From the sequence record PZ000615.1: a stretch of 51,960 nt of DNA; one strand, written 5' to 3'. Both the position numbers and the translations under genes were made by a program. Below are positions 3,929 to 51,829 of the stretch, in pieces. Positions within the stretch are counted from its first letter, which is position 1. Each line of letters opens with the position of its first letter. Below the pieces are notes generated by a model, which saw only the letters and a program-made list of their open reading frames with translations, made no database searches and was not told the origin of the DNA. This DNA comes from a phage.

Positions 3929-4170
3929 TGGATATTCGCGAGGGTAGAGCGGCAGTATGGGAGCACGCAAAGGAATGCGGGATTGATGAAGATATAGCAC
4001 GAATTGCTAAACATTTCGACATCAAAGAGATTAATATCTTCACTCCTGGCGACGGCGGCAAGCTTACATATTTAAACGAACGCCCTCGCAAATTTCACAA
4101 GATAGCGGTTGCAGCGAAATCAGAAAAAACGCTTGACCAATACCTTAAAGAGGCAAGAGGCAAGAAATGA
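3928..4170 (+). CDS. Hypothetical protein (contains an internal copy of the promoter element)
   Basis: ATG at 3928 overlapping upstream stop (TAATG); track ORF 3862..4170 has an upstream non-ATG extension. Confidence 0.4.
   Translation: MDIREGRAAVWEHAKECGIDEDIARIAKHFDIKEINIFTPGDGGKLTYLNERPRKFHKIAVAAKSEKTLDQYLKEARGKK
3993..4037 (+). promoter_or_regulatory. Promoter-like cassette located inside a coding region
   Basis: TATAGCACGAATTGCTAAA then TAATAT at 4032-4037 with the same 22-nt spacing; inside ORF 3928..4170. Confidence 0.3.
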
Positions 4171-6207: not shown

Positions 6208-6788
6208 TGATTATCATTTTGAACGCACCAGCCGGAGCCGGAAAAGACACCATTCAGCAAGCAATTGCGGAGCTGCATGAGGTGTCACAGCTCAGCTTTA
6301 AAAAGCCTATGTTCGCTATGGCTAATGCCATGCTTGGCGATCTGGGGTTCATGGAATTCATGGACGCCTACAACAACCGCGAGCGAAAAGAAAAGCCACT
6401 TGAATTGCTTCACGGCTCAAGCCCTCGGCAGTTCATGATCTGGCTGAGTGAGAGCGTTATTAAACCTCACTTTGGCGACAAGCATTTTGGTAATCTGCTT
6501 TATGACGATTACATTATGCACGAGAATGACGGCTACTATGTCGGAGTTGTCAGCGACGGCGGGTTTGAGAGTGAGACGATTGCTCTGATCGATACTGGAG
6601 TTCCGGTTCGTCTTGTTCGACTTCATCGTGACGGCTACTCGTTTGCCGGAGACTCACGCGATTATGTCAGTCTGCCGCTCTACGCTAATAGCCCTACGTA
6701 TGACTACCAAGAGTTTGACGTTCAGTTAACTGAAGGTTTGCCAGTTGTGGCGGCGCTGGATATTCTCTCAATGGTCGGGTTGAAATAG
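6207..6788 (+). CDS. P-loop kinase, deoxynucleoside monophosphate kinase-like
   Basis: N-terminal IIILNAPAGAGKDT (GxxxxGKD/T P-loop as in phage dNMP kinases); TAATG coupling to upstream gene. Confidence 0.55.
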   Translation: MIIILNAPAGAGKDTIQQAIAELHEVSQLSFKKPMFAMANAMLGDLGFMEFMDAYNNRERKEKPLELLHGSSPRQFMIWLSESVIKPHFGDKHFGNLLYDDYIMHENDGYYVGVVSDGGFESETIALIDTGVPVRLVRLHRDGYSFAGDSRDYVSLPLYANSPTYDYQEFDVQLTEGLPVVAALDILSMVGLK

Positions 6789-6828
6789 CACGAATTGCTA
6801 AAACTTGCGCAACGGAATGCGCTATTAT
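6784..6828 (+). promoter_or_regulatory. Promoter-like cassette
   Basis: AATAGCACGAATTGCTAAA 6784-6802 (contains stop TAG of upstream gene); hairpin GCGCA-ACGGAA-TGCGC; TATTAT 6823-6828. Confidence 0.4.
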
Positions 6829-6867
6829 CTTTTCAACGAAACGAAACACCCAAACAGGAGAAACACC

Positions 6868-6973: not shown

Positions 6974-7174
6974 ATGTCAAAATCAATCGCTGTAAAATGC
7001 ATTCGCAACGATTCTAAAACACTGCCTTTCGCTGTTAATGGCGTATATAACGCGGAGGATATCGGCGGTCAGTATAAGATCAGCTATATGACAGGCGCTT
7101 ATACTTCTGACTTTATTCACGCGCCGTTAAATGGTCACTATCTGGAATTTATTCCGGTGGACATTCAGAAGTAA
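6974..7174 (+). CDS. Hypothetical protein
   Basis: Track ORF, followed by hairpin terminator. Confidence 0.45.
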   Translation: MSKSIAVKCIRNDSKTLPFAVNGVYNAEDIGGQYKISYMTGAYTSDFIHAPLNGHYLEFIPVDIQK

Positions 7175-7193: not shown

Positions 7194-7217
7194 GGGAGCC
7201 TTTAGGCTCCCTTTTTG
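7194..7217 (+). terminator. Rho-independent terminator
   Basis: GGGAGCC-TTTA-GGCTCCC followed by TTTTT. Confidence 0.6.
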
Positions 7218-7286: not shown

Positions 7287-7502
7287 ATGAGAGACTTTAT
7301 TAACTCTATCGCTGGCACTGGCGGCGGCGTTACCCTTGGCGGCGCGGCGGCTGGTCAGCTTATCATTGCCGGAATAGGCTTAATCATCATGACAGCTTTC
7401 GGAGCCTGGGGTGCATATCTGCGCTGGAAGGACTCAAAAGCACTACACAAGGCACTAGCCAACGGCGACATCAAAGAGGCCGTCAGGATCAGGAGTCAGT
7501 GA
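7287..7502 (+). CDS. Putative holin/pinholin (71 aa)
   Basis: ATG at 7287 inside track ORF 7215..7502; Gly/Ala-rich hydrophobic segment [33 protein letters not shown] then charged C-tail; immediately upstream of endolysin. Confidence 0.5.
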
Positions 7503-7503
7503 T

Positions 7504-7986
7504 ATGAGCAACGTTTTAAAATCCACTCTGACGGGCGTTATGCTCGTCACTGCTGGTCTACTATCTCAGCTTGAGGGTACGCATTACACGCCTTACATCG
7601 ACATCGCTGGCGTCCCAACCGTCTGTGAAGGGATTACTGGTAAGGATGTAATCTGGGGCAAGAAGTACACGCGGCGCGAGTGCGATAAGCTGTTAGAGAA
7701 GCATATCGCTGTTGCTGCTAAGGCAGTTGACGGAGCCGTTAAGGCTGAAATCCCCGACACCATGAGAGCGGCTCTGTATAGCTTCACATTCAACGCTGGT
7801 CAAGGGGCTTTCCGTTCGTCCACCCTGTTACGTTTAACGAACCAGGGGCGCTTATGGGAGGCTTGCGGCGAGCTGAATAAGTGGGTTTACTTCTACAACC
7901 CAAAAACCGGAAAGAAAGAGGTTGCGAAAGGCCTGAAAAACCGACGCGCCGTTGAATATCAATATTGCGTTAAGGATCTGAAATGA
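7504..7986 (+). CDS. SAR-type endolysin (lysozyme, GH24-like)
   Basis: N-terminal weakly hydrophobic signal-anchor-release segment [15 protein letters not shown] followed by lysozyme motif [16 protein letters not shown]; AGGAG SD. Confidence 0.7.
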
Positions 7987-8390
7987 AAAAGACAATCATC
8001 GCTTGTTGCGTATCTCTGGCTTTAATCGTATCTGGTTGCTCGGCTACGTCTGCTCTGACTGGTCTAATCGGCAGCAAGCCGGATGTCACAGCACAGGCCG
8101 GAGCCGAAAACACAAAACAGACTCTCGGACTGAACAGCAAGGTTGACCAATCCAGCAAGTCGGACAACACGATTAAGGATTCAGCCGTCGGCTCTGTTGA
8201 TAGCTCCAACGGCAAACGAGTTAACGCCTCAAGCATCACGGCGGATATGATCAAGGCAGACAAGATTGAGATCAGGAATAATGAGGCTTACGTGTGGGAA
8301 ATGGAGGCAGGGATGTTTGTCGTTGGCCTAATGGCGGGCGCTCTCGCAGTTACCATCTACGCGACACGCAGAAAGAACAAAGGAGCCTAA
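7983..8390 (+). CDS. Unimolecular spanin (lipoprotein signal + C-terminal TMD)
   Basis: N-terminal lipobox LIVSGC, C-terminal [24 protein letters not shown] overlap with endolysin; followed by terminator. Confidence 0.65.
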
Positions 8391-8404
8391 CGGCTCCTTT
8401 TTTT
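8382..8404 (+). terminator. Rho-independent terminator after spanin gene
   Basis: GGAGCC-TAAC-GGCTCC followed by TTTTTTT. Confidence 0.6.
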
Positions 8405-8565
8405 ATTCGTACAACTTGACGTGAAGGATACAAACCCCATCCTCATCATTAAGACCATGCTCAAAGTGACCGCTAGCCCTCATGCTGGTCGTCAACATTG
8501 ACAGCAGGGCGCAATTCAAACCCTCCCCGCTTATCCGGTTCACAGCCACACACTCAACGATTGAG

Positions 8566-8952
8566 TCAATTACTGTTTGAGCTTCCACGTATGGATCTGG
8601 CTCTTTCAATTTCGTGCCTCCTGAATAGATATTCGTCATCAAGCTTTCCGATGTTCATCATCTCTTTCATGTAAAGGCTCTCGCTTGCTTCCAGTGAATG
8701 CAGCTCAAAGTCAAACGGCCTGCTCTCTTTGTTCTTTACCCAAGCCTTTCCGCCCGACATATCCAGGTAGCCAAGCGTGCAAAGGCGCGGAATGAACTCA
8801 CGACCGACACAGGCGGCGAACTGCTTAGGAGTAACTCCGGCGCTCCTGGCTAATCGCTCACACTCGCGATGACCGAACACAAATGTTGATAACTCCTGGC
8901 GGGTAAATTCCCGCCGTGACTCTGCGAACCGATACAGATCAAGAATGAACAT
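8566..8952 (-). CDS. Hypothetical protein
   Basis: Track ORF; adjacent to stop of 526-aa gene; overlapped at 3' end by alternative-frame ORF 8403..8642. Confidence 0.4.
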   Translation of the reverse strand: MFILDLYRFAESRREFTRQELSTFVFGHRECERLARSAGVTPKQFAACVGREFIPRLCTLGYLDMSGGKAWVKNKESRPFDFELHSLEASESLYMKEMMNIGKLDDEYLFRRHEIERARSIRGSSNSN

Positions 8953-11236: not shown

Positions 11237-11281
11237 AATATAACAAAACCCGCCGGAGCGGGTTTATCAAAAAGTGCTATT
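11237..11281 (-). promoter_or_regulatory. Promoter-like cassette (minus orientation) overlapping terminator hairpin
   Basis: Minus strand AATAGCACTTTTTGATAAA, hairpin CCCGCTCCGGCGGG in spacer, TATATT 22 nt after TTGATA; upstream of small membrane ORF. Confidence 0.35.
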
Positions 11282-12789: not shown

Positions 12790-12836
12790 AGCTTAACGCC
12801 TTTCTCGTTATTTGTCTTTAGCAATTTGTGCTATTT
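12790..12836 (-). promoter_or_regulatory. Promoter element copy (minus orientation), weak -10
   Basis: Minus strand AATAGCACAAATTGCTAAA; hexamer at the expected position is TTAAGC (poor -10). Confidence 0.25.
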
Positions 12837-13707: not shown

Positions 13708-13752
13708 ACTATACCAAAGCCAGCCCCAGGAGTTTTAGCAATTCGTGCTATC
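13708..13752 (-). promoter_or_regulatory. Promoter-like cassette (minus orientation)
   Basis: Minus strand GATAGCACGAATTGCTAAA then TATAGT after 22 nt; upstream of secreted-protein gene. Confidence 0.4.
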
Positions 13753-14674: not shown

Positions 14675-14721
14675 GATTATGACCGATTCGAGACTGATTG
14701 GTTTAGCAAAAAGTGCTATTT
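14675..14721 (-). promoter_or_regulatory. Promoter-like cassette (minus orientation), first of leftward operon
   Basis: Minus strand AATAGCACTTTTTGCTAAA; CATAAT-like hexamer ~23 nt downstream; then CATCGAAACAGGAGG-ATG. Confidence 0.4.
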
Positions 14722-14902: not shown

Positions 14903-15445
14903 AAATTTCACGGAGGATTTGGGGAGGATTACGGAGGATTTCTCGGACTCAATTAGACGAACCTTTCAGAGCTACAGCTCATCTTTCTCCATCCCTGACT
15001 TGTCTGATATGCTACGGAGGGTTGCGGAGGATTACGGAGGATTTGCAATTCGGCTCTAGCCCTTGGTGCGCGTGGCTTGCGAGAGATTTACGCCGGAAAA
15101 TGTCGATTTCTCTATGGGGGCTGGTATAGATATACATAGAGAATGATGAGAAAGTGATGTGTCCATACGCTCACAGAAAAAATCCGATAACCCAATAATC
15201 AACATAATCCTCCGTAAACTATGAAACGATACCAATATACCAATAGAGAGATATAGTAATAATATATATAAAAACCCTTATATTACATATATATATAGTA
15301 TTATTATATACTATCTATACTGATTAGCTTGGTCATAAAATGAGCTGATTTTACGGAGGATGGTTCCGGCGCAATCCTCCGCGATTTCGATAAGTGTATG
15401 ATTTGCAAGGCTGCATTTACGGAGGGTATTTTCCGCAAAACACGT
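14903..15445. repeat. Iteron/AT-rich non-coding region A (candidate origin or regulatory hub)
   Basis: Tandem CGGAGGATT-like 10-11-bp repeats at 14911-14940 and 15015-15043, inverted/extra copies at 15206-15214, 15351-15362, 15371-15384, 15415-15428; AT-rich core 15225-15330; blocks shared with region B. Confidence 0.6.
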
Positions 15446-15458
15446 AAAAACAACCCAA

Positions 15459-15503
15459 AATAGCACTTTTTGCTAAAACCGCACCCCTGGCTTTTGCTAT
15501 TAT
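15459..15503 (+). promoter_or_regulatory. Promoter-like cassette, first of rightward array
   Basis: AATAGCACTTTTTGCTAAA 15459-15477; TATTAT 15498-15503; then CAACGAAACGAAAGG. Confidence 0.4.
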
Positions 15504-15539
15504 TATCTCAACGAAACGAAAGGCACAAAGGAAAACGTC

Positions 15540-15830
15540 ATGAAACTGGTACGCGAATCTATCAAGCTTGGCACTGAGTACAACGGCAAATGGTGGTTCA
15601 CTATCGACGGCAACGACGCCGATGAGCTGGAAGCTGCTCAAGATCGCCTTTCATCAATGGAGACTGGATCTCACACTGTTAAGGCTGACGGCTCACTGAA
15701 AGCCGAGAGATGGAATGACTACTGTGACGGATGCCCTTGTTATGAAGATGGTCACTCTGCTGGATACTGGATTCCTGTCGACATGGTTCCAGCATTCAAG
15801 GCAGCATGGAAGATTGCAAAGAAAGCCTAA
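15540..15830 (+). CDS. Hypothetical protein (first gene of rightward early array)
   Basis: Track ORF; stop TAA abuts promoter element. Confidence 0.5.
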   Translation: MKLVRESIKLGTEYNGKWWFTIDGNDADELEAAQDRLSSMETGSHTVKADGSLKAERWNDYCDGCPCYEDGHSAGYWIPVDMVPAFKAAWKIAKKA

Positions 15831-15873
15831 TAGCACGAATTGCTAAACATGAGCCGGAGCAATCCGGCATAAT
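15829..15873 (+). promoter_or_regulatory. Promoter-like cassette
   Basis: AATAGCACGAATTGCTAAA; hairpin CCGGAGCAATCCGG; CATAAT 15868-15873. Confidence 0.4.
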
Positions 15874-15913
15874 AGCCCCATCGAAACGAAACAGTAGCTA
15901 CAAGGAAAAGAAA

Positions 15914-16719: not shown

Positions 16720-17493
16720 ATGATGGCTCGCGTTGCATATCGCGGCGCGGGTGCATTCGTATCTTACGCTCACCCAAAGCAGATCAACATGACCCTTGAG
16801 GTTGCTGACGCTGTATGCATAGACAACGGCGCATTCTCAAAGAAGAATACCGGACGCGAGACGGATTGGAACGGGTTTTACAACGACTTTCTCCCAAGGT
16901 TTATCGACCATCCGAAACTCAGATTCTTTGTTATTCCGGATGACATAAGCGGAGACGACCAGGAGAACGACAGGCTTATCCGTGAGCTACCAGCGCACCT
17001 TAAACACAAAGGCGCTCCGGTATGGCACTTGCACGAGAGCATAGATCGCCTTGTTCACCTGGCTAACGAGTGGGAGTATGTATGTCTTGGCTCATCAGGA
17101 GAATACTACTCAATCCGATCCCCTAAGTGGCGAGCAAGGATGGATGAGGCATTCAACGCTCTGATCTCTCGCGGGTATTCTGCTAAGCTTCACGGCCTGA
17201 GGATGCTGGATGGTCGAGTTCTTGGCAATTATCCACTTGACCAGGCCGACTCAACCAATATCGCCATTAATGCGCCAAAGTGGTTATGCAAGCACGTGCA
17301 GATGACTATAGAGGCTTGCCGGATGCAGACGCATTTCAGTAAGTGGATTGACACAACAGATCCGAAGGTAGCTCTTGATAACCTGATCTCTGCCGGAGGA
17401 ACTAAAGAGCAAATGCTATCTCAGAGGTGCGCAATCCTGAAATCGTGCATTGAGTCAGTCAAACCTCCGCATAAGTCTGACTGGTTAAAATAG
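16720..17493 (+). CDS. TGT-fold protein, putative DpdA-like DNA transglycosylase (tentative)
   Basis: Track ORF 16672..17493; probable ATG 16720 after AGGGTGA; CIDNGAF resembles TGT DSGGFQ catalytic-Asp motif, YVCLGSSGEY resembles TGT YAVGGLAVGE; no zinc CxCxxC..H motif; adjacent to YhhQ-like gene. Confidence 0.4.
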   Translation: MMARVAYRGAGAFVSYAHPKQINMTLEVADAVCIDNGAFSKKNTGRETDWNGFYNDFLPRFIDHPKLRFFVIPDDISGDDQENDRLIRELPAHLKHKGAPVWHLHESIDRLVHLANEWEYVCLGSSGEYYSIRSPKWRARMDEAFNALISRGYSAKLHGLRMLDGRVLGNYPLDQADSTNIAINAPKWLCKHVQMTIEACRMQTHFSKWIDTTDPKVALDNLISAGGTKEQMLSQRCAILKSCIESVKPPHKSDWLK

Positions 17494-17533
17494 CACTTTT
17501 TGCTAAACGCCGCCCGACGTAATCGGGCATAAT
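17489..17533 (+). promoter_or_regulatory. Promoter-like cassette
   Basis: AATAGCACTTTTTGCTAAA; hairpin GCCCGACGTAATCGGGC; CATAAT 17528-17533. Confidence 0.4.
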
Positions 17534-17562
17534 GCAGTTACACCAATCAAAGGAGCAATACC

Positions 17563-18540: not shown

Positions 18541-18803
18541 AAAAGGTTGACAAGGGTTTATCTTTCTTTGCTGCGCTGGCTATAGTGGCGGCTATCATCG
18601 GCGGAGCTACAGTGTCCGAGGGCTACAGGATTCACAAGCTGATCAACAGTGTCGATGATGACGGGAAAGTTATCTGTGCTCTGACTGGTAACGAGCGAAC
18701 GCGAACCTATCCGGTGCTGGCTGGTAAGGTAACGGTAATGCAAACAACCCAGGAACAAGAGTATTATTGCGCTCCAGGTAAATTATACTGGGTTGCGAAA
18801 TAG
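18537..18803 (+). CDS. Small protein with N-terminal hydrophobic anchor/signal
   Basis: N-terminal LSFFAALAIVAAIIGGA; stop TAG inside promoter element. Confidence 0.45.
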   Translation: MKKVDKGLSFFAALAIVAAIIGGATVSEGYRIHKLINSVDDDGKVICALTGNERTRTYPVLAGKVTVMQTTQEQEYYCAPGKLYWVAK

Positions 18804-18843
18804 CACTTTTTGTTAAACATACCCGCCGTCGTGCGGGTATTAT
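18799..18843 (+). promoter_or_regulatory. Promoter-like cassette
   Basis: AATAGCACTTTTTGTTAAA; hairpin ACCCGCCGTCGTGCGGGT; TATTAT 18838-18843. Confidence 0.4.
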
Positions 18844-18871
18844 TGTTTTAACGAAACGAAAGGAGCAAATC

Positions 18872-19105
18872 ATGAGTCATGTAATCAACCAGAGAGCTAT
18901 CAACGAAACTCACCGCCAGGTATTGTGGGCTATCTTCATCACTCGCGACGGTCAGCGCTATGCGGTGCGCGATCACGGGTTTAAATGCAACACATACGCC
19001 GAGTTAGACGGGCGTTGGGTTCACACCTCAAACCTGTCAAGCTTCTTGGTCTGGAATGGCGAGTTCCAAGGTCACGACGATATCAGCAGTCTGATCGAAG
19101 AATAG
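18872..19105 (+). CDS. Hypothetical protein
   Basis: Track ORF; AAGGAG SD; stop abuts promoter element. Confidence 0.5.
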   Translation: MSHVINQRAINETHRQVLWAIFITRDGQRYAVRDHGFKCNTYAELDGRWVHTSNLSSFLVWNGEFQGHDDISSLIEE

Positions 19106-19145
19106 CACGAATTGCTAAAACTCAATATTGGTGTTGCGCTATAGT
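19101..19145 (+). promoter_or_regulatory. Promoter-like cassette
   Basis: AATAGCACGAATTGCTAAA; TATAGT 19140-19145. Confidence 0.4.
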
Positions 19146-21154: not shown

Positions 21155-21198
21155 ATAGCACGAATTGCTAAAACGGGATGTTCGCTGACTGGTATATT
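21154..21198 (+). promoter_or_regulatory. Promoter-like cassette
   Basis: AATAGCACGAATTGCTAAA; TATATT 21193-21198. Confidence 0.4.
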
Positions 21199-21468: not shown

Positions 21469-21981
21469 ATGAAAGAAAAATACATGCGTGCAACAGCAGT
21501 TTCATTCGTCGCGCCGTTCACAATGAACGGGTTCACAGCAGGGCGACGCTACTTTTCCAACAAGGGCGCTTATATCTTCCAGCATCGAAACGGAGATGTT
21601 TATGGCATCACGAGAACCGGAGTAACTGATGATGATGGGCAGGATCGTGTTGTCTGCCTGGTTGAGACAAGCCTTTTCAACGGTGAAACCCTGGTTGCTC
21701 GAATCGAACACGAATACGACGAAATCGCGGTGGCTCGAAAAATCAAGAGATACCGTCGCATGGCGATTAACGCCTTTGCAATGTACGCCCGTCGATGGTG
21801 GAACATGAGCAAGAAACAGGCTCGCGCCTGGGGTCGAATGCAAGCTGAGCCGTTCTTCTACAATGACGGCGACGTTGTCCCAGGAACTGTGATTCACGAC
21901 TTCATTGAGCAGTGCGATATTTGGGAAGTTGACCAGGAGCTTTTCAACGACGCTGTTTATGAAGAGATTTCATGCTGGTAA
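21469..21981 (+). CDS. Hypothetical protein
   Basis: ATG 21469 directly after upstream stop; track ORF 21403..21981 has an upstream extension. Confidence 0.45.
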   Translation: MKEKYMRATAVSFVAPFTMNGFTAGRRYFSNKGAYIFQHRNGDVYGITRTGVTDDDGQDRVVCLVETSLFNGETLVARIEHEYDEIAVARKIKRYRRMAINAFAMYARRWWNMSKKQARAWGRMQAEPFFYNDGDVVPGTVIHDFIEQCDIWEVDQELFNDAVYEEISCW

Positions 21982-22025
21982 ATAGCACTAATTGCTAATC
22001 TTGCGCGAGGTCATTTTGATATAGT
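21981..22025 (+). promoter_or_regulatory. Promoter-like cassette
   Basis: AATAGCACTAATTGCTAAT; hairpin GAGGTCA...TGACCTC spanning TATAGT 22020-22025. Confidence 0.4.
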
Positions 22026-22066
22026 GACCTCATTCAAGCAAAGCAACCAATCAGAGGAATGAACTC

Positions 22067-22795
22067 ATGAAATTATCACTCAAAGCCATCGCAACCAATC
22101 GCATCAACGGATCTGTAACCGCGTTCAAGGTGTACCCAGTGTTAAATGACATGCTGGCAAGCCTGACGGATTCCGGATACTGGTTCATCAACGATAATGG
22201 TGAGAAGCAGTTCGCACACAAAGGAATCGTTCGCGACGGTTTTAGCGATCCGAAAAAGCAATACAGTTTTGACCTTTGTTTGCAGGTCAAAACGCTGGAG
22301 GAAACTATAAAGAGTCAGATTGACAAGTCTATCCGGTATTCTTTAAAGCCAGGTGGTGATTTATACGGGGCTTTGCGTGGAGGATTCCAAGGCGGCGGAT
22401 ATGTTCGGGATTTTTCATTCAGCAATGCATCTAACGCGGCGGCAAGTGCAGTCAAGGAAATGCAATCTGTTTGCGGAATCATTGGTGACGGCACTATCAA
22501 AGTCAAGATCGGTGACTTGCGCAGCGATGAGAAAAAGGAGCGTGACGCGGCTGTTGCTGAACTTGATAAGCATCTTCCAGCATACCGACGTTCTGATAAA
22601 GGGTTTGGTCTGGTTGAAAGCATTGAGTGGATCGGCAAGCTTAACGCGGCTCACAGTTCAGACTGTCAGAAATATGAGGGTATACTTGAAGATCTTATGG
22701 AGGCGTTCGACATTCGCACCATTGACGGACTCAAGCATTTTGCCTCGAACCTGAAGCGCTCGTCTGAAATTATCGACGCTGTTCGCAAGAAATAG
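22067..22795 (+). CDS. Hypothetical protein (242 aa)
   Basis: Track ORF; GAGGAATGAAC SD; stop TAG inside promoter element. Confidence 0.5.
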   Translation: MKLSLKAIATNRINGSVTAFKVYPVLNDMLASLTDSGYWFINDNGEKQFAHKGIVRDGFSDPKKQYSFDLCLQVKTLEETIKSQIDKSIRYSLKPGGDLYGALRGGFQGGGYVRDFSFSNASNAAASAVKEMQSVCGIIGDGTIKVKIGDLRSDEKKERDAAVAELDKHLPAYRRSDKGFGLVESIEWIGKLNAAHSSDCQKYEGILEDLMEAFDIRTIDGLKHFASNLKRSSEIIDAVRKK

Positions 22796-22835
22796 CACTA
22801 ATTGCTAAAACAATGCCGGAGCAATCCGGCATAAT
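22791..22835 (+). promoter_or_regulatory. Promoter-like cassette
   Basis: AATAGCACTAATTGCTAAA; hairpin CCGGAGCAATCCGG; CATAAT 22830-22835. Confidence 0.4.
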
Positions 22836-22865
22836 GAACTCATCGAAACAAACGGAGCTATAGAG

Positions 22866-24934: not shown

Positions 24935-24940
24935 AAACTA

Positions 24941-24963
24941 ACCCGCTACGGCGGGTTTTTTTT
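24941..24963 (+). terminator. Rho-independent terminator closing the early array
   Basis: CCCGC-TACG-GCGGG followed by T8. Confidence 0.6.
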
Positions 24964-30926: not shown

Positions 30927-30954
30927 TTGACCGTTTAACAAAAAGTGCTATTAT
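30927..30954 (+). promoter_or_regulatory. Sigma70-like promoter (TTGACC-N16-TATTAT) with inverted palindromic element in spacer; upstream of capsid gene
   Basis: TTGACC 30927-30932, TATTAT 30949-30954; spacer contains TTTAACAAAAAGTGCTATT, the reverse complement of the early element. Confidence 0.45.
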
Positions 30955-46010: not shown

Positions 46011-46029
46011 TTTAGCAAAAAGTGCTATT
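46011..46029 (+). promoter_or_regulatory. Inverted copy of palindromic element upstream of tail fibre gene
   Basis: TTTAGCAAAAAGTGCTATT (reverse complement of AATAGCACTTTTTGCTAAA) embedded in larger inverted repeat AATAGCG...GCTATT; between terminator 45964-45985 and tail fibre start. Confidence 0.3.
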
Positions 46030-46049
46030 CATAACATGAGGGCTTGACA

Positions 46050-48029
46050 ATGGCAATTTATAGAAAAGGTGAGGCATCACTCGCGGCAGACGGTACTGTT
46101 ACCGGATACGGTACGAACTGGAAAGATCAGCTTGCTCTGGTTCGAATCGGCGCGACCGTCGTATTCCTGACTGGTAACGCAATTAGCGCTATCGGGACGG
46201 TATCGGCTATCGTGTCTGAAACTCAACTTCAAACCATTCAGACTGACGGCGCTGTCGTTGCCCGTGGTAAGTATTTCATCCTACTGCATGACTCGCTGAC
46301 GGTTGACGGCCTGGCGCAAAACGTTGCTGAGACACTCCGTTATTATCAGTCACAAGAAACTGAGATTGCTGACGCGGTTGATTATTTCAGAACTTTCGAC
46401 TGGGAGAAGTTTGAGAAGATCGCGACATCGGTTAAGACCAGCGCGGCGGCTGCTAAGGTTTCAGAAACCAACGCCAAAACATCAGAGACGAACGCCAAGG
46501 CTAGCGAGAATGCGTCACTGCAAAGCAAGAACTCGGCGGCAGGTTCAGCTACGGCAGCAAAAACCAGTGAGACTAACGCAAAGACGTCTGAGACTCGCTC
46601 AAAGACTTCAGAGACTAACTCTGCTGCATCGGCTGTAACGGCAACCAACGAGGCAGACCGAGCCAAGCGTGAAGCTGATCGCGCTGCGGCGGCTAACCCT
46701 GACAACGCGTTACTGAAAGCGAATAACCTGAGTGACGTTCCGGATAAGGCGGCTGCAAGGGCTAACCTTCAAATCGATAGATTTAACCAAGACTCAACAA
46801 CTGAGACAAGGATTCTGTCTGGTGATAAGTCTCAGGCTATGATTGTGTCAACTGGTTCCACGTGGGGAGTGTACAGGTTTGGATCTGGTTGGGTTCCTCT
46901 AGAGATTGCTCAGGGCGGAACCGGAGCAAGCAATGCAGAAGGGGCAAGGAAGAGCTTGCAGTTAAGTGGTGATGACTACGTCAACTTTAATGGATTATCT
47001 TTGAAAAACCAGTTAACGATGAGTAGCAACGGGCAGCCAATTTCACCAACGCTGCTTACAAGGGTGTTTGATGCAAGTGGAAGCAACCTTCTCGGTTCTG
47101 CTGAATTGAGAGCTAACTCAAATGGTAACGTAGAACTCGTTAATAGGATTTCTGGATCGCCAAGGGCGCTGGCGCTATTCCCTGATGGTTCTGTTGCTTT
47201 TTCATCGTTTAATGGCAGATTCATAAGTCAAGGCATGGGTCTTGGGGTCGGTCGAGATATTTCTACTGGTTACGTACTCAATGCAATGAAGGATGTCATC
47301 AACAACGGAGAAACTCAGGCGTTCAGGGTTACTGGGACTGGTGGCATGGTTATTGGTGGAGTTAACTTCCAATATGCACCTTCAATGTCATTCCATTCTG
47401 GAGATGTAGTAGGGGCTTTGTGGGTTGACTACAGGACTGGTAACGCAATGACTGTTTCCGGAACAAGGTCATCTATACTTGGTAACACGACTCCAAATCA
47501 GAACGTGTTATGGGGTACTGCTAACACAACTGTTGACGCTAACGGATTTTTGAAAAGGGCATCACCAATAGTCAAGATTATGAGTAATTCATTTGAGACT
47601 AATGAAGAGTCCGAGGGCGTTTTAGTAACAAGGGTTGGAGTTGGTGAATATCTTGTTTCGGGATGTCTTGGGCTTCATTCAGATCTTGCGTGGGGTGGCG
47701 TAGATGGAGGATTTGAAGTTCCAAAAGACAGGAATGGACAGAACAAGATATGGGTTGACTATGACATGAAAGAGGATGGTTCAATTCTGGTTAAAACCTA
47801 CCACAGGGAGTATAAAGACGTTCCTGAGTTCGCCAAAAACAAGAAGGATGGTTTTGAGGATGGTCAGCCTATTGATATCCCATATGACTCATTCTTAAGC
47901 ATTCGAGTTGAAATGCCGGAGGACAGCGCATACAACAAGAGAATTAGGGAGGCCGAATCAGATGTAAGAAGCAACGCAAACAGGGAATGGTGGAGTAAAA
48001 TACACGAAACTGGTTGCGAGGAGGAATAA
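46050..48029 (+). CDS. Tail fibre protein
   Basis: ATG 46050; N-terminal repeated KTSETNAK / Ala-Ser-Thr-rich collar motif typical of phage tail fibres; divergent C-terminal domain. Confidence 0.7.
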
Positions 48030-48059
48030 AAAAAGGAGCCGTAAGGCTCCTTTTCTTTT
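48027..48059. terminator. Bidirectional terminator between convergent tail fibre and ssb genes
   Basis: A-run, GGAGCC-GTAA-GGCTCC, T-run; same stem sequence as terminator at 8382. Confidence 0.6.
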
Positions 48060-48061
48060 GC

Positions 48062-48502
48062 TTAGAATGGAATATCGTCGTCGAAATCCATCGGTGGGCT
48101 GTTTTGTGGTTTATTGCTTTGCTGCTGTTGTTGTCGTGGCTGTTGATTTCCTTTTGGCTGCTGAGGCTCACCCCATGCGCCTTGTTGCTGCTGCTGAGAT
48201 CGCTGGCTGTAGATTAGTTGAGCAAATCCGGCTGGCTGCAACGTTACGTAGGTTGTTCCGTTGTGCTCGCGAATGACTGGCTTGAGCTGATCGCACTGCA
48301 CAGAGATTGTTTTTCCTAGCTGGAACGCATCGCGATACCAGTTCATCAGGCCGTCTGTTTTCGCGTTGAAAAAGAACGTGTAGTTAGTATACTCTCGCGT
48401 CCCTTCACGGTTCTTGTACGACTCGCTAAGCTCAATGATGAATGTCGTTTCGTTGTGGATGCGCGGCTCTTTGCGGATCTCTCCGGTGATAATATGAGGC
48501 AT
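48062..48502 (-). CDS. ssb: Single-stranded DNA-binding protein
   Basis: OB-fold-sized N-terminus, Gln/Pro-rich linker, acidic C-terminal tail DFDDDIPF. Confidence 0.8.
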   Translation of the reverse strand: MPHIITGEIRKEPRIHNETTFIIELSESYKNREGTREYTNYTFFFNAKTDGLMNWYRDAFQLGKTISVQCDQLKPVIREHNGTTYVTLQPAGFAQLIYSQRSQQQQQGAWGEPQQPKGNQQPRQQQQQSNKPQNSPPMDFDDDIPF

Positions 48503-50355: not shown

Positions 50356-50399
50356 AGTATACCCGATCTCATTCGTTGCGTTTAGCAAAAAGTGCTAAT
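50356..50399 (-). promoter_or_regulatory. Promoter-like cassette (minus orientation) upstream of exonuclease-erf-ssb operon
   Basis: Minus strand AATTAGCACTTTTTGCTAAA then TATACT ~21 nt downstream, then CAGGAG SD and ATG 50325. Confidence 0.4.
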
Positions 50400-50407
50400 T
50401 TTCACTC

Positions 50408-50860
50408 AACGGAGGATTGCGGAAATTTACGGAGGATTTGAAATCTGGCTCTAAGCCTTGCCACTACTGGATTTGTCGACAATCTACGCCGGAAAATGTC
50501 GATTTTCTCGCTCTATAGACACCAAAAACGCAGAAAACAGGCACAAAAAAAGATCCAATAACCCAATAATCAACATAATCCTCCGTAAATAAATAATATA
50601 CATCACATAGATAATGATAATATCTATATATATTAGACACTTACGTATATCTAAAGGTTGAAAATAGCTCATTATTTGAACGAAATTCGCGGAGGATTGA
50701 TCCGGCGTAAATTCCGCAAATTCTGTAAGTAACTGATTTTGTTGAATGCAATTGCGGAGGATTTTTTCGTGAATCTCCCGTAAATCGGCCTTGTTTAAGT
50801 TTGTTAAATCTTTTTCCGGAGGATTGCGGAGGATTGCGGAGGGTTTGCGGAGGATTTTTC
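50408..50860. repeat. Iteron/AT-rich non-coding region B, paralogous to region A
   Basis: CGGAGGATT copies at 50410-50440, 50575-50588 (inverted), 50688-50700, 50750-50765, four tandem copies 50816-50856; AT-rich core 50580-50660; shares TACGCCGGAAAATGTCGATTT and ATAACCCAATAATCAACATAATCCTCCGTAAA with region A. Confidence 0.6.
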
Positions 50861-50887
50861 CGGCGTAAAAAAACCCGCCGAAGCGGG

Positions 50888-51829
50888 TTAGTTTTTGCGG
50901 TTGATTAGGACTATCGGATCGTAAAGTGCTCGCTTGCAACCGGATTTGAATCCTGAGCGGTCATCATTTGGAATGATAACTTTCAACTCCCTGTCATCTG
51001 CCATGTATAGAGTATCAAGATCGCCTGACGCACAAGCCACTCTAAGCTCACGCTCTCCGGTATACCTGTATGCGACAATCTCAAGGTTGCTAGGCTCAAT
51101 GCACGCCCAACACTCTTGGCCTGTAGCCTCATGAACTCGGACGGCATCAAACCACGAATTAACAAGGTATATGGCTTTGTCTGTCGATCCTACCTTTATG
51201 ACTGCTCCTCTCGTGTAGTCTCTGGCATAGAACCGCTCATCGCCAAGCTCATCTATAAATAGAAGGTTGCAGTATTCATCATCAAGATCATCTCCCTGCA
51301 CGAGCTGCATCGGGAGTACGTGAAAAACGCTCTCAGCTCCATTCTCAAGGGTTTTCACGCCTACATCGAATGATTCACCTATTAGCCCCTCAAACATCGT
51401 CAGAGGCGTCTGCGCTCGCTTCTCAGTCCTATCCAGAACCGCCTGGCATTTGTCATGCTCGGCAGTAGCTCCAAAGCTGTAGCCTGGGTCTTTCGCGGCT
51501 CTCTTGTTCTGCTTGATTACATATTCCTGAGGAACCTTGCCGAGGAATCTACCGAGGATGTTAATGCATTCACTGTAAGGCTCGCCGGACAACTTCATAA
51601 GCCAGCCAATCCCTTTGTCAGCTCCGCAATTGTTGCAATAAGCCCAACCGTCACCGACCTTGTTGTCCTTTTTGTTTGTCCAACGAAATCTATCCTTACC
51701 GCCACAGTGAGGGCAGTCCTGATGCTTGCCGTTGAAGTATTTCGAGTTCAGGCCGCAAATGCTTTGGAGCGCGTCTTGCCACATGTTAGCCATGTATGGG
51801 ATCACGTCCTCCTCCTGGTACATCATCAT
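50888..51829 (-). CDS. DNA primase (zinc-ribbon + TOPRIM-like)
   Basis: N-terminal CPHCGG...RFRW...CNNCG zinc ribbon; C-terminal acidic motifs GDLDTLY and IIPNDDRSG. Confidence 0.55.
   Translation of the reverse strand: MMMYQEEDVIPYMANMWQDALQSICGLNSKYFNGKHQDCPHCGGKDRFRWTNKKDNKVGDGWAYCNNCGADKGIGWLMKLSGEPYSECINILGRFLGKVPQEYVIKQNKRAAKDPGYSFGATAEHDKCQAVLDRTEKRAQTPLTMFEGLIGESFDVGVKTLENGAESVFHVLPMQLVQGDDLDDEYCNLLFIDELGDERFYARDYTRGAVIKVGSTDKAIYLVNSWFDAVRVHEATGQECWACIEPSNLEIVAYRYTGERELRVACASGDLDTLYMADDRELKVIIPNDDRSGFKSGCKRALYDPIVLINRKN

Follow-up and report, generated by a model that had tools for sequence, protein, structure and literature searches.

One stem at three predicted terminators of a T1-like phage: a small family-wide stem set as the probable source

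Introduction

When the same terminator stem stands at distant sites of one phage genome, either the terminator has been copied from site to site, or each site has acquired its stem separately from a set that the phage family shares. This question is raised by a GGAGCC/GGCTCC hairpin that follows the spanin gene, and recurs between the tail fibre and ssb genes, in a 51,960-bp stretch of phage DNA, the whole of which was analysed here and is referred to as the window. A sequence-only reading had described these as two terminators with the same stem, had taken both to mark boundaries between converging transcription units, and had proposed that they may be a reused module. Features of this kind, Rho-independent terminators that bound the transcription modules of T1-like phages, are already known from the family genome papers and have been described in silico (PMC11447400). 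We refer to the hairpins as terminators A, B, and C, in the order of their positions, and treat termination as predicted.

Results

Gene blocks around the hairpins

The window is complete-genome-sized and represents a T1-like siphovirus, Eclunavirus-like within Drexlerviridae. Its nearest relatives are the Enterobacter phages Ec_L1 (NC_042122) and Phc (MZ669808) of the genus Eclunavirus, with a lysis region ca. 87% identical to that of the window. The genes next to the hairpins are as follows.

6974–7174, + strand: ORF of 66 aa upstream of the holin gene and co-directional with it
7287–7502, + strand: holin gene, upstream of the spanin gene
7504–7986, + strand: endolysin gene, upstream of the spanin gene
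7983–8390, + strand: unimolecular (T1 gp11-type) spanin gene (PHROG 1804, Rz-like spanin, E = 6e-47)
8403–8642, − strand: ORF of 79 aa, function unassigned (PHROG 9539, E = 1.5e-29)
46044–48029, + strand: tail fibre gene (PHROG 1591, E = 2e-118)
48062–48502, − strand: ssb gene with C-terminal DDDIPF (PHROG 44, E = 1.8e-12)

The spanin gene is the last of a lysis cassette ordered holin-endolysin-spanin, and its translation has a lipobox at the N-terminus and a transmembrane segment at the C-terminus. The 79-aa ORF converges on it, and the GAA-TAA end of this ORF adjoins the T-run of terminator B. The tail fibre gene also ends in GAA-TAA, which adjoins the A-tract of terminator C, and the ssb gene converges on the tail fibre gene with its stop codon 8 nt before the extended stem of C. 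The ORF map and the PHROG matches agree with the spanin, tail fibre, and ssb genes that had been named from the sequence.

Three hairpins with the same stem

An exact search of the whole window for GGAGCC-N(3-8)-GGCTCC returned three matches, at 7195–7210, 8382–8397, and 48035–48050. The letters at 8382–8404 (GGAGCC TAAC GGCTCC TTTTTTT) and 48027–48059 (TAA AAAAA GGAGCC GTAA GGCTCC TTTTCTTTT) agree with the description of one 6-bp stem with different 4-nt loops. The sharing of the stem was thus correctly read, but the count of two was not, since a third copy lies at 7195–7210 (GGGAGCC TTTA GGCTCCC TTTTT). The hairpins with their extensions and folding energies are as follows.

7194–7216, + strand: terminator A, GGGAGCC-TTTA-GGCTCCC (7194–7211) followed by T5 (7212–7216); −15.9 kcal/mol
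8379–8404, + strand: terminator B, AAAGGAGCC-TAAC-GGCTCCTTT (8379–8400, core 8382–8397); −17.3 (+) and −17.6 (−) kcal/mol
48028–48059, both strands: terminator C, AAAAGGAGCC-GTAA-GGCTCCTTTT (48031–48054, core 48035–48050); −16.6 (+) and −18.4 (−) kcal/mol

Stem lengths are 7, 9, and 10 bp when the A:U extensions are counted, with 5–6 G:C pairs, and the folding energies correspond to z = −3.3 to −5.7 against shuffles. A U-tract stands directly 3′ of each hairpin: U7 in B(+), where the hairpin runs into T7 (8398–8404) and then AT; U7-AU in C(−), the ssb transcript; U4CU4 in C(+), the tail-fibre transcript; and U5 in A(+). The consensus GC(U)7RU has been proposed as a criterion for strong terminators in a 2026 preprint (bioRxiv 10.64898/2026.05.29.728758). 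B(+) and C(−), with U7 followed by AU, are close to it; both read CC(U)7AU, so that −10C, U7, and RU are present and −11G is absent, the dinucleotide before the U-tract being CC rather than GC. A and C(+) fit less well. A scan of the whole window against Rfam gave no family match.

Because the three hairpins are stable, carry U-tracts, and stand at the ends of gene blocks, they have the anatomy of canonical Rho-independent terminators: a GC-rich hairpin of 7–10 bp, a tetraloop, and a U-tract at the ends of transcription units, with no essential difference. Their assignment as predicted Rho-independent (intrinsic) terminators is supported by this anatomy together with the comparative evidence given below, from which we infer termination itself. 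Host RNA polymerase would use all three as intrinsic terminators; while the polymerase pauses on the U-tract, the nascent RNA behind it would fold into the hairpin, and the transcript would be released.

The three sites differ in their setting. C lies between convergent genes and both strands read a hairpin followed by a U-tract, in line with the earlier description of 48027–48059 as bidirectional. It would separate a rightward tail-fibre operon from a leftward ssb-erf-exo operon and, judging per-strand strength from the U-tracts, would be strongest for the leftward transcript (CC-U7-AU). B would end the holin-endolysin-spanin transcript and would likewise be strongest on the + strand (CC-U7-AU). 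On the − strand, B forms the same hairpin with a broken U-tract (UUUGUUCUUUC), which is weak; because of this interruption, B is convergent but asymmetric at best as a bidirectional terminator. With symmetric A-tracts and T-tracts, B and C resemble known bidirectional terminators between convergent genes. A is located between the co-directional ORF at 6974–7174 and the holin gene at 7287–7502, and would on the + strand stop or attenuate transcription entering the lysis cassette. The view that the stem marks converging boundaries therefore holds for B and C, but the stem is not restricted to such boundaries.

Extent of the likeness between sites

If the terminator is a reused or mobile module, gene conversion or illegitimate recombination has placed copies of the hairpin at further sites, or the hairpin was kept as a microhomology linker. 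We consider this unlikely. The closest likeness in its favour is between B(+) and C(−), on opposite strands, where 29 of 31 positions are identical (AAAGGAGCCTWACGGCTCCTTTTTTTATTC). The stem and three A:U pairs account for part of this stretch, and U7 with AU and the TTA from the converging TAA stop for the rest; the likeness ends with the terminator consensus, and the flanks beyond it are unrelated, which argues against copying, as do the loops, which differ at all three sites. No composite cassette was found either: the hairpins come without a sigma-70-like promoter (no promoter-like site was detected within ca. 150 nt of any of the three) and without the ATAGCAC-N3-TTG-N-TAAA repeat that is abundant elsewhere in the window. 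Membership of the hairpins in that repeat system was considered and rejected, none of the 20 repeat copies (0/20) being adjacent to a hairpin.

In dinucleotide-shuffled sequences, 0.01 copies of GGAGCC-N(3-8)-GGCTCC were expected against the three observed, and none of 100 shuffles reached three. Since terminators are not random sequence, this null is unsuitable for stem sharing; it was dropped and replaced by a family census of terminator stems.

Stem turnover at orthologous sites

Eighty Drexlerviridae loci were retrieved by their helicase gene together with flanks of 10 kb, a sampling blind to the hairpins, and sites A, B, and C were placed in them by tblastn of the neighbouring proteins. 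A hairpin was present at essentially every orthologous position of all three sites. The GGAGCC stem was found at A in 3/76, at B in 9/73, and at C in 28/71 loci, being the commonest stem at C; the sample includes many Webervirus and Tunavirus loci, and shared ancestry inflates these frequencies.

In Ec_L1 and Phc, the hairpin at A is invariant and site B is conserved, with one loop base different in Phc, where the stop codon TAA becomes TAG. At C, these two phages have other hairpins, GCCCCC-ATAT-GGGGGC and CCCCGC-GATAG-GCGGGG (AAAGCCCCC-ATAT-GGGGGCTTT and AAAACCCCGC-GATAG-GCGGGG with their extensions). At the position of A, other relatives form hairpins with different stems, for example GGGAACCT/GGGTTCCC in Webervirus. 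Compensatory double-sided changes were found in 4 of 9 pairs at B and 7 of 9 pairs at C in alignments limited to equal-length sequences with 4-nt loops. Of the alignment cells, 96–98% were paired, which is partly true by construction because the alignments were anchored on already-detected hairpins; with the same anchoring, none of 500 shuffles reached the observed covariation score. These sequence comparisons indicate that structure, not sequence, is conserved at the sites among relatives.

The conservation of structure bears on a further explanation, in which a factor from the phage or its host (RNase III, the ribosome, or an RNA-binding protein) recognises the GGAGCC/GGCTCC helix or the Shine-Dalgarno-like AAAGGAG arm of this helix, the sequence being kept for co-regulation. 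The identical 6-bp core at three sites, the resemblance of the 5′ arm AAAGGAG to a ribosome-binding site, and a gene annotated as 'RNA-binding protein' in Ec_L1 could be cited for it. However, relatives keep the structure and change the sequence at every site (GGAGGC, GGGGCG, GGCGGC, CCCCGC, and others), Ec_L1 and Phc have no GGAGCC at site C, the loop sequences vary, the arm is not followed by a start codon at ribosome-binding distance, and Rfam returned no match. A recognition element is thus very unlikely.

Copying within genomes would tie the stems of different sites together. GGAGCC occurred at C in 3/7 genomes with GGAGCC at B and in 20/57 without it, and the three genomes with GGAGCC at both sites compare with ca. 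2.5 expected. The stems of B and C were accordingly independent across the family (Fisher p = 0.69 for all loci, 0.39 for unique hairpin triples, a test with few independent lineages), which argues against the module. GGAGCC at A was, in favour of it, always accompanied by GGAGCC at B (3/3; Fisher p = 0.0015), but this association is based on two lineages, and in these the A sites appear to be homologous by descent (GGAGCCTTT in both).

One locus in the sample (L137, IMGVR_UViG_2706796100_000001), with a helicase 66% identical to that of the window, has four GGAGCC/GGCTCC hairpins in 22 kb, at 1779, 6017, 15913, and 17129, including all three sites orthologous to A, B, and C. These four copies count for a module, and both they and the co-occurrence at A and B may point to a degree of homogenisation within genomes.

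A small set of stems in the family

The family loci contained 384 terminator-like hairpins, in which GGAGCC was the second commonest core and the effective number of cores was ca. 18. For the window, with its 14 strict terminator-like hairpins, this repertoire predicts ca. 5 same-core pairs; nine were seen, made up of ACCCGC four times and GGAGCC three times. Site A was scored in the census as core GGGAGC (the form with a 6-nt loop) and is counted here as the third GGAGCC copy. Against the family's own stem set, the stem sharing in the window is about as expected.

The ACCCGC/GCGGGT stem forms four terminator-like hairpins, at 11246–11265, 18819–18840, 24940–24957, and 50872–50889, with loops CGGA, CGTCGT, TACG, and CGAA. 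Together, ACCCGC and GGAGCC supply the stems of half of the 14 strict terminator-like hairpins.

The hairpin is also widespread outside the family. At least 120 viral contigs contain the 22-nt AAAGGAGCC-N4-GGCTCCTTT; the matches listed have 47 different loops, and about 100 of the contigs listed are unrelated to Drexlerviridae. After removal of the copy by which a contig had been selected, GGAGCC was still the top core among the other terminators of the matches listed (5/77). That it remains the commonest core in the unrelated phage contigs listed fits a generally popular stem, and could also be cited for a module.

The explanation that best joins these results is that A, B, and C are ordinary intrinsic terminators whose stems come from a small family set, with no intragenomic copy, and we regard this as probable. 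The shared stem is attributed to a small family-wide set and to separate histories of the sites because the stems of B and C are independent, the relatives have other stems at C, and the hairpin is widespread. The set in Drexlerviridae would comprise stems with purine-rich 5′ arms (GGAGCC, GGAGGC, GGGGCC, and GGGGC) in addition to CCCCGC and ACCCGC. Each site would have drifted within this set by compensatory substitutions, or would have been replaced along with neighbouring gene modules, and the presence of the same member at A, B, and C in this genome would be happenstance. The proposal of a terminator copied within the genome fares poorly against the independence of B and C, the C-site stems of Ec_L1 and Phc, and the stem of phage W011D described below.

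Spanin stop codon in the loop of terminator B

The converging stop codons of the spanin gene and the 79-aa ORF are 12 nt apart. Because of this narrow gap, the 5′ arm of B codes for the last three spanin residues, K-G-A, and the TAA stop (8388–8390) lies inside the loop. The distant phage W011D has the identical AAAGGAGCC-TAAC-GGCTCC at its spanin end (AAAGGAGCCTAACGGCTCC after the spanin, identical to the window), although its lysis genes are only ca. 69% identical to those of the window, and the spanin terminator is thus old. Site B is fixed by descent as well as by its coding for K-G-A-stop, a further point against a mobile hairpin.

The layout extends through the family. The spanin stop overlaps the terminator loop in 71 of 73 Drexlerviridae loci (L134–L213) despite stem turnover, the stems at these sites including GGAGCC, GGAGGC, GGGGCG, GGCGGC, and AGCCCC, and the last spanin residues of relatives (K-G/E/A-A) are likewise coded by the 5′ arm. 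In all of the distant genera examined, the end of the spanin gene forms a hairpin whose loop holds the stop codon, and the stems vary: AAGGAGGC-GTAA-GCCTCCTT in T1, AAAGGGGC-GTAAT-GCCCCTTT in Webervirus, and AAGGCGGC-ATAA-GCCGCCTT in Tlsvirus.

In E. coli, termination fell from ca. 90% to less than 10% when the stop codon was shifted from 28 bp to 5 bp ahead of the terminator (PMC4824070), and termination points usually lie 25–75 nt past the stop codon (PMC12207403). At B, the distance from the stop codon to the termination point is ca. 15 nt, closer than this usual range. Hairpin formation should be impeded by a ribosome that halts in the loop, which makes the efficiency of B on translated transcripts uncertain. 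The layout could make termination at B(+) translation-sensitive, or else could simply reflect compaction.

As a refinement of ordinary intrinsic termination, and not exclusive of it, B may be a translation-gated rather than a constitutive terminator, a reading that we hold to be quite unlikely. A ribosome finishing the spanin gene would cover the loop and both arms, so that termination would occur only when the leading ribosome lags; gating would then adjust how much transcription continues antisense to the converging genes, or how well the 3′ end of the lysis mRNA is protected. The retention of the stop in the loop through stem turnover, the loss of termination with a stop codon 5 bp away, and the short spacing at B relative to the usual one are all consistent with gating. 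Genome compaction explains the layout equally well, given the 12 nt between the converging stops. The next gene lies at a greater distance in several subgroups, yet the stop is still in the loop, which may reflect historical inertia or function. The spanin end offers a tidy test case for translation interfering with termination.

Possible tail-fibre exchange at site C

The C-terminal module of the tail fibre (ca. 46750–48029) has no DNA-level homology to Ec_L1, Phc, or L190, a locus of the family sample with a helicase 94% identical to that of the window, and megablast found no DNA relatives of the tail-fibre 3′ module. By tblastn, its nearest protein relatives are 47–49% identical and belong to Tunavirus and Vilniusvirus phages of E. 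coli and Klebsiella. This pattern suggests that the C-terminal half of the tail fibre is a replaced host-range module.

Hairpin C lies at the edge of this module. In L190, homology with the window breaks at ca. 46750 in the tail fibre gene and resumes exactly at 48029, including the hairpin; in Phc, it resumes at 48055, directly after the hairpin. Klebsiella phage HazelMika, which has a related tail-fibre C-terminal module (47% aa identity), has the same stem after that gene, and SA30RD and Chapo, other relatives of the module, have a CCCCGC stem. As a trace of where hairpin C came from, these stems are suggestive and not decisive.

The breakpoints adjoining C (48029 in L190, 48055 in Phc) and the stem on the tail-fibre side in HazelMika favour the linker form of the module explanation, which resembles the promoter-early stem-loops (PeSL) of T4-type phages: tail-fibre 3′ ends would be exchanged with the help of the adjacent Erf and exonuclease genes. 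Breakpoints at gene ends are expected anyway, since only recombinants with intact genes survive. The linker idea arises because GGAGCC, the commonest stem at the ssb/tail-fibre junction in Drexlerviridae, is common to phages with unrelated tail-fibre modules. In its fullest form, the GGAGCC hairpin would be a microhomology linker of ca. 22 bp for swaps of host-range (tail-fibre 3′) modules through Erf and exonuclease, a counterpart of PeSL shuffling that lacks the promoter. As a separate matter, the spanin stop in the loop might make the end of the lysis transcript depend on translation. These are speculations to which we give little credence.

Comparison with known systems

Shuffling through PeSL has been documented for T4-type phages (PMC2839356), and this precedent lends the module explanation some plausibility. 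Like PeSL (PMC2839356, Arbiol et al. 2010; PMC4122927, Comeau et al. 2014), the GGAGCC hairpins are short terminator stem-loops recurring at module boundaries, and they could in principle offer microhomology for modular shuffling. PeSL, on the other hand, combine a strong sigma-70-like promoter with the stem-loop, are numerous in hyperplastic regions, and have demonstrated recombination between copies, whereas the GGAGCC hairpins have no promoter attached and their identity is limited to ca. 30 nt of generic terminator consensus.

The 'transcriptons' of T1, TLS, and SU57 belong to the same family, depend on host polymerase for transcription, and have intergenic hairpins predicted by ARNold or TransTerm. 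Their genome papers give terminators genome by genome with no stem comparison between sites or genomes, and in the available portions neither a family-wide stem census nor the spanin stop-in-loop layout is mentioned. For SA30RD and Chapo, terminators are annotated at the same tail-fibre/ssb junction. Our literature search found no transcript 3′-end mapping for any member of Drexlerviridae.

The results are of little importance beyond annotation. A, B, and C can be annotated confidently as predicted intrinsic terminators that would bound the lysis cassette and stand between the late tail-fibre operon and the leftward recombination operon. They also give a general caution: because phage families draw on a small stem set, identical short terminator stems in one phage genome need not mean duplication. 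The compact AAAGGAGCC-N4-GGCTCC-U7, widespread in phages, could serve as a small bidirectional terminator part.

Other repeats in the window

The ATAGCAC-N3-TTG-N-TAAA repeat is present in 20 copies in the window against 0.4 expected. It corresponds to the 21-nt direct repeat of unknown function reported in TLS, T1, and Rtp (PMC11447400). Its copies include the following.

369–386, 3994–4011, 6785–6802, 15460–15477, and 15830–15847, + strand: ATAGCAC-N3-TTG-N-TAAA repeat
17490–17507, 18800–18817, 19102–19119, 21155–21172, and 22792–22809, + strand: same repeat
11263–11280, 12817–12834, 13734–13751, 14702–14719, 30934–30951, 46011–46028, and 50381–50398, − strand: same repeat

The copies at 30934 and 46011 are on the − strand in the rightward late region and appear opposite to the local gene direction. 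Part of the copies belong to a composite unit of ca. 62 nt that occurs seven times (6784–6845, 15459–15520, 15829–15890, 17489–17550, 18799–18860, 21981–22042, and 22791–22852). It consists, in order, of the ATAGCAC...TAAA repeat, a hairpin with a copy-specific stem, an ATAAT/TATTAT-like hexamer, and a mostly conserved tail (AACGAAACGAA or a variant). With its conserved motif and variable stem-loop, this unit looks more PeSL-like than the GGAGCC terminators do. The hairpins at 15853–15868 and 22815–22830 are identical including the loop (GCCGGA GCAA TCCGGC) and lie inside two copies of the unit that are 82% identical to each other.

Two regions ca. 35.4 kb apart, 14919–15218 and 50409–50867, both contain clusters of tandem repeats of the type TT(G/A)CGGAGGATT. 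They share near-identical stretches of 42 nt (95%; 15177–15218 and 50548–50589) and 24 nt (96%; 15086–15109 and 50482–50505), and from their sequence they resemble arrays of iteron-type or regulatory repeats, of which the genome would have two.
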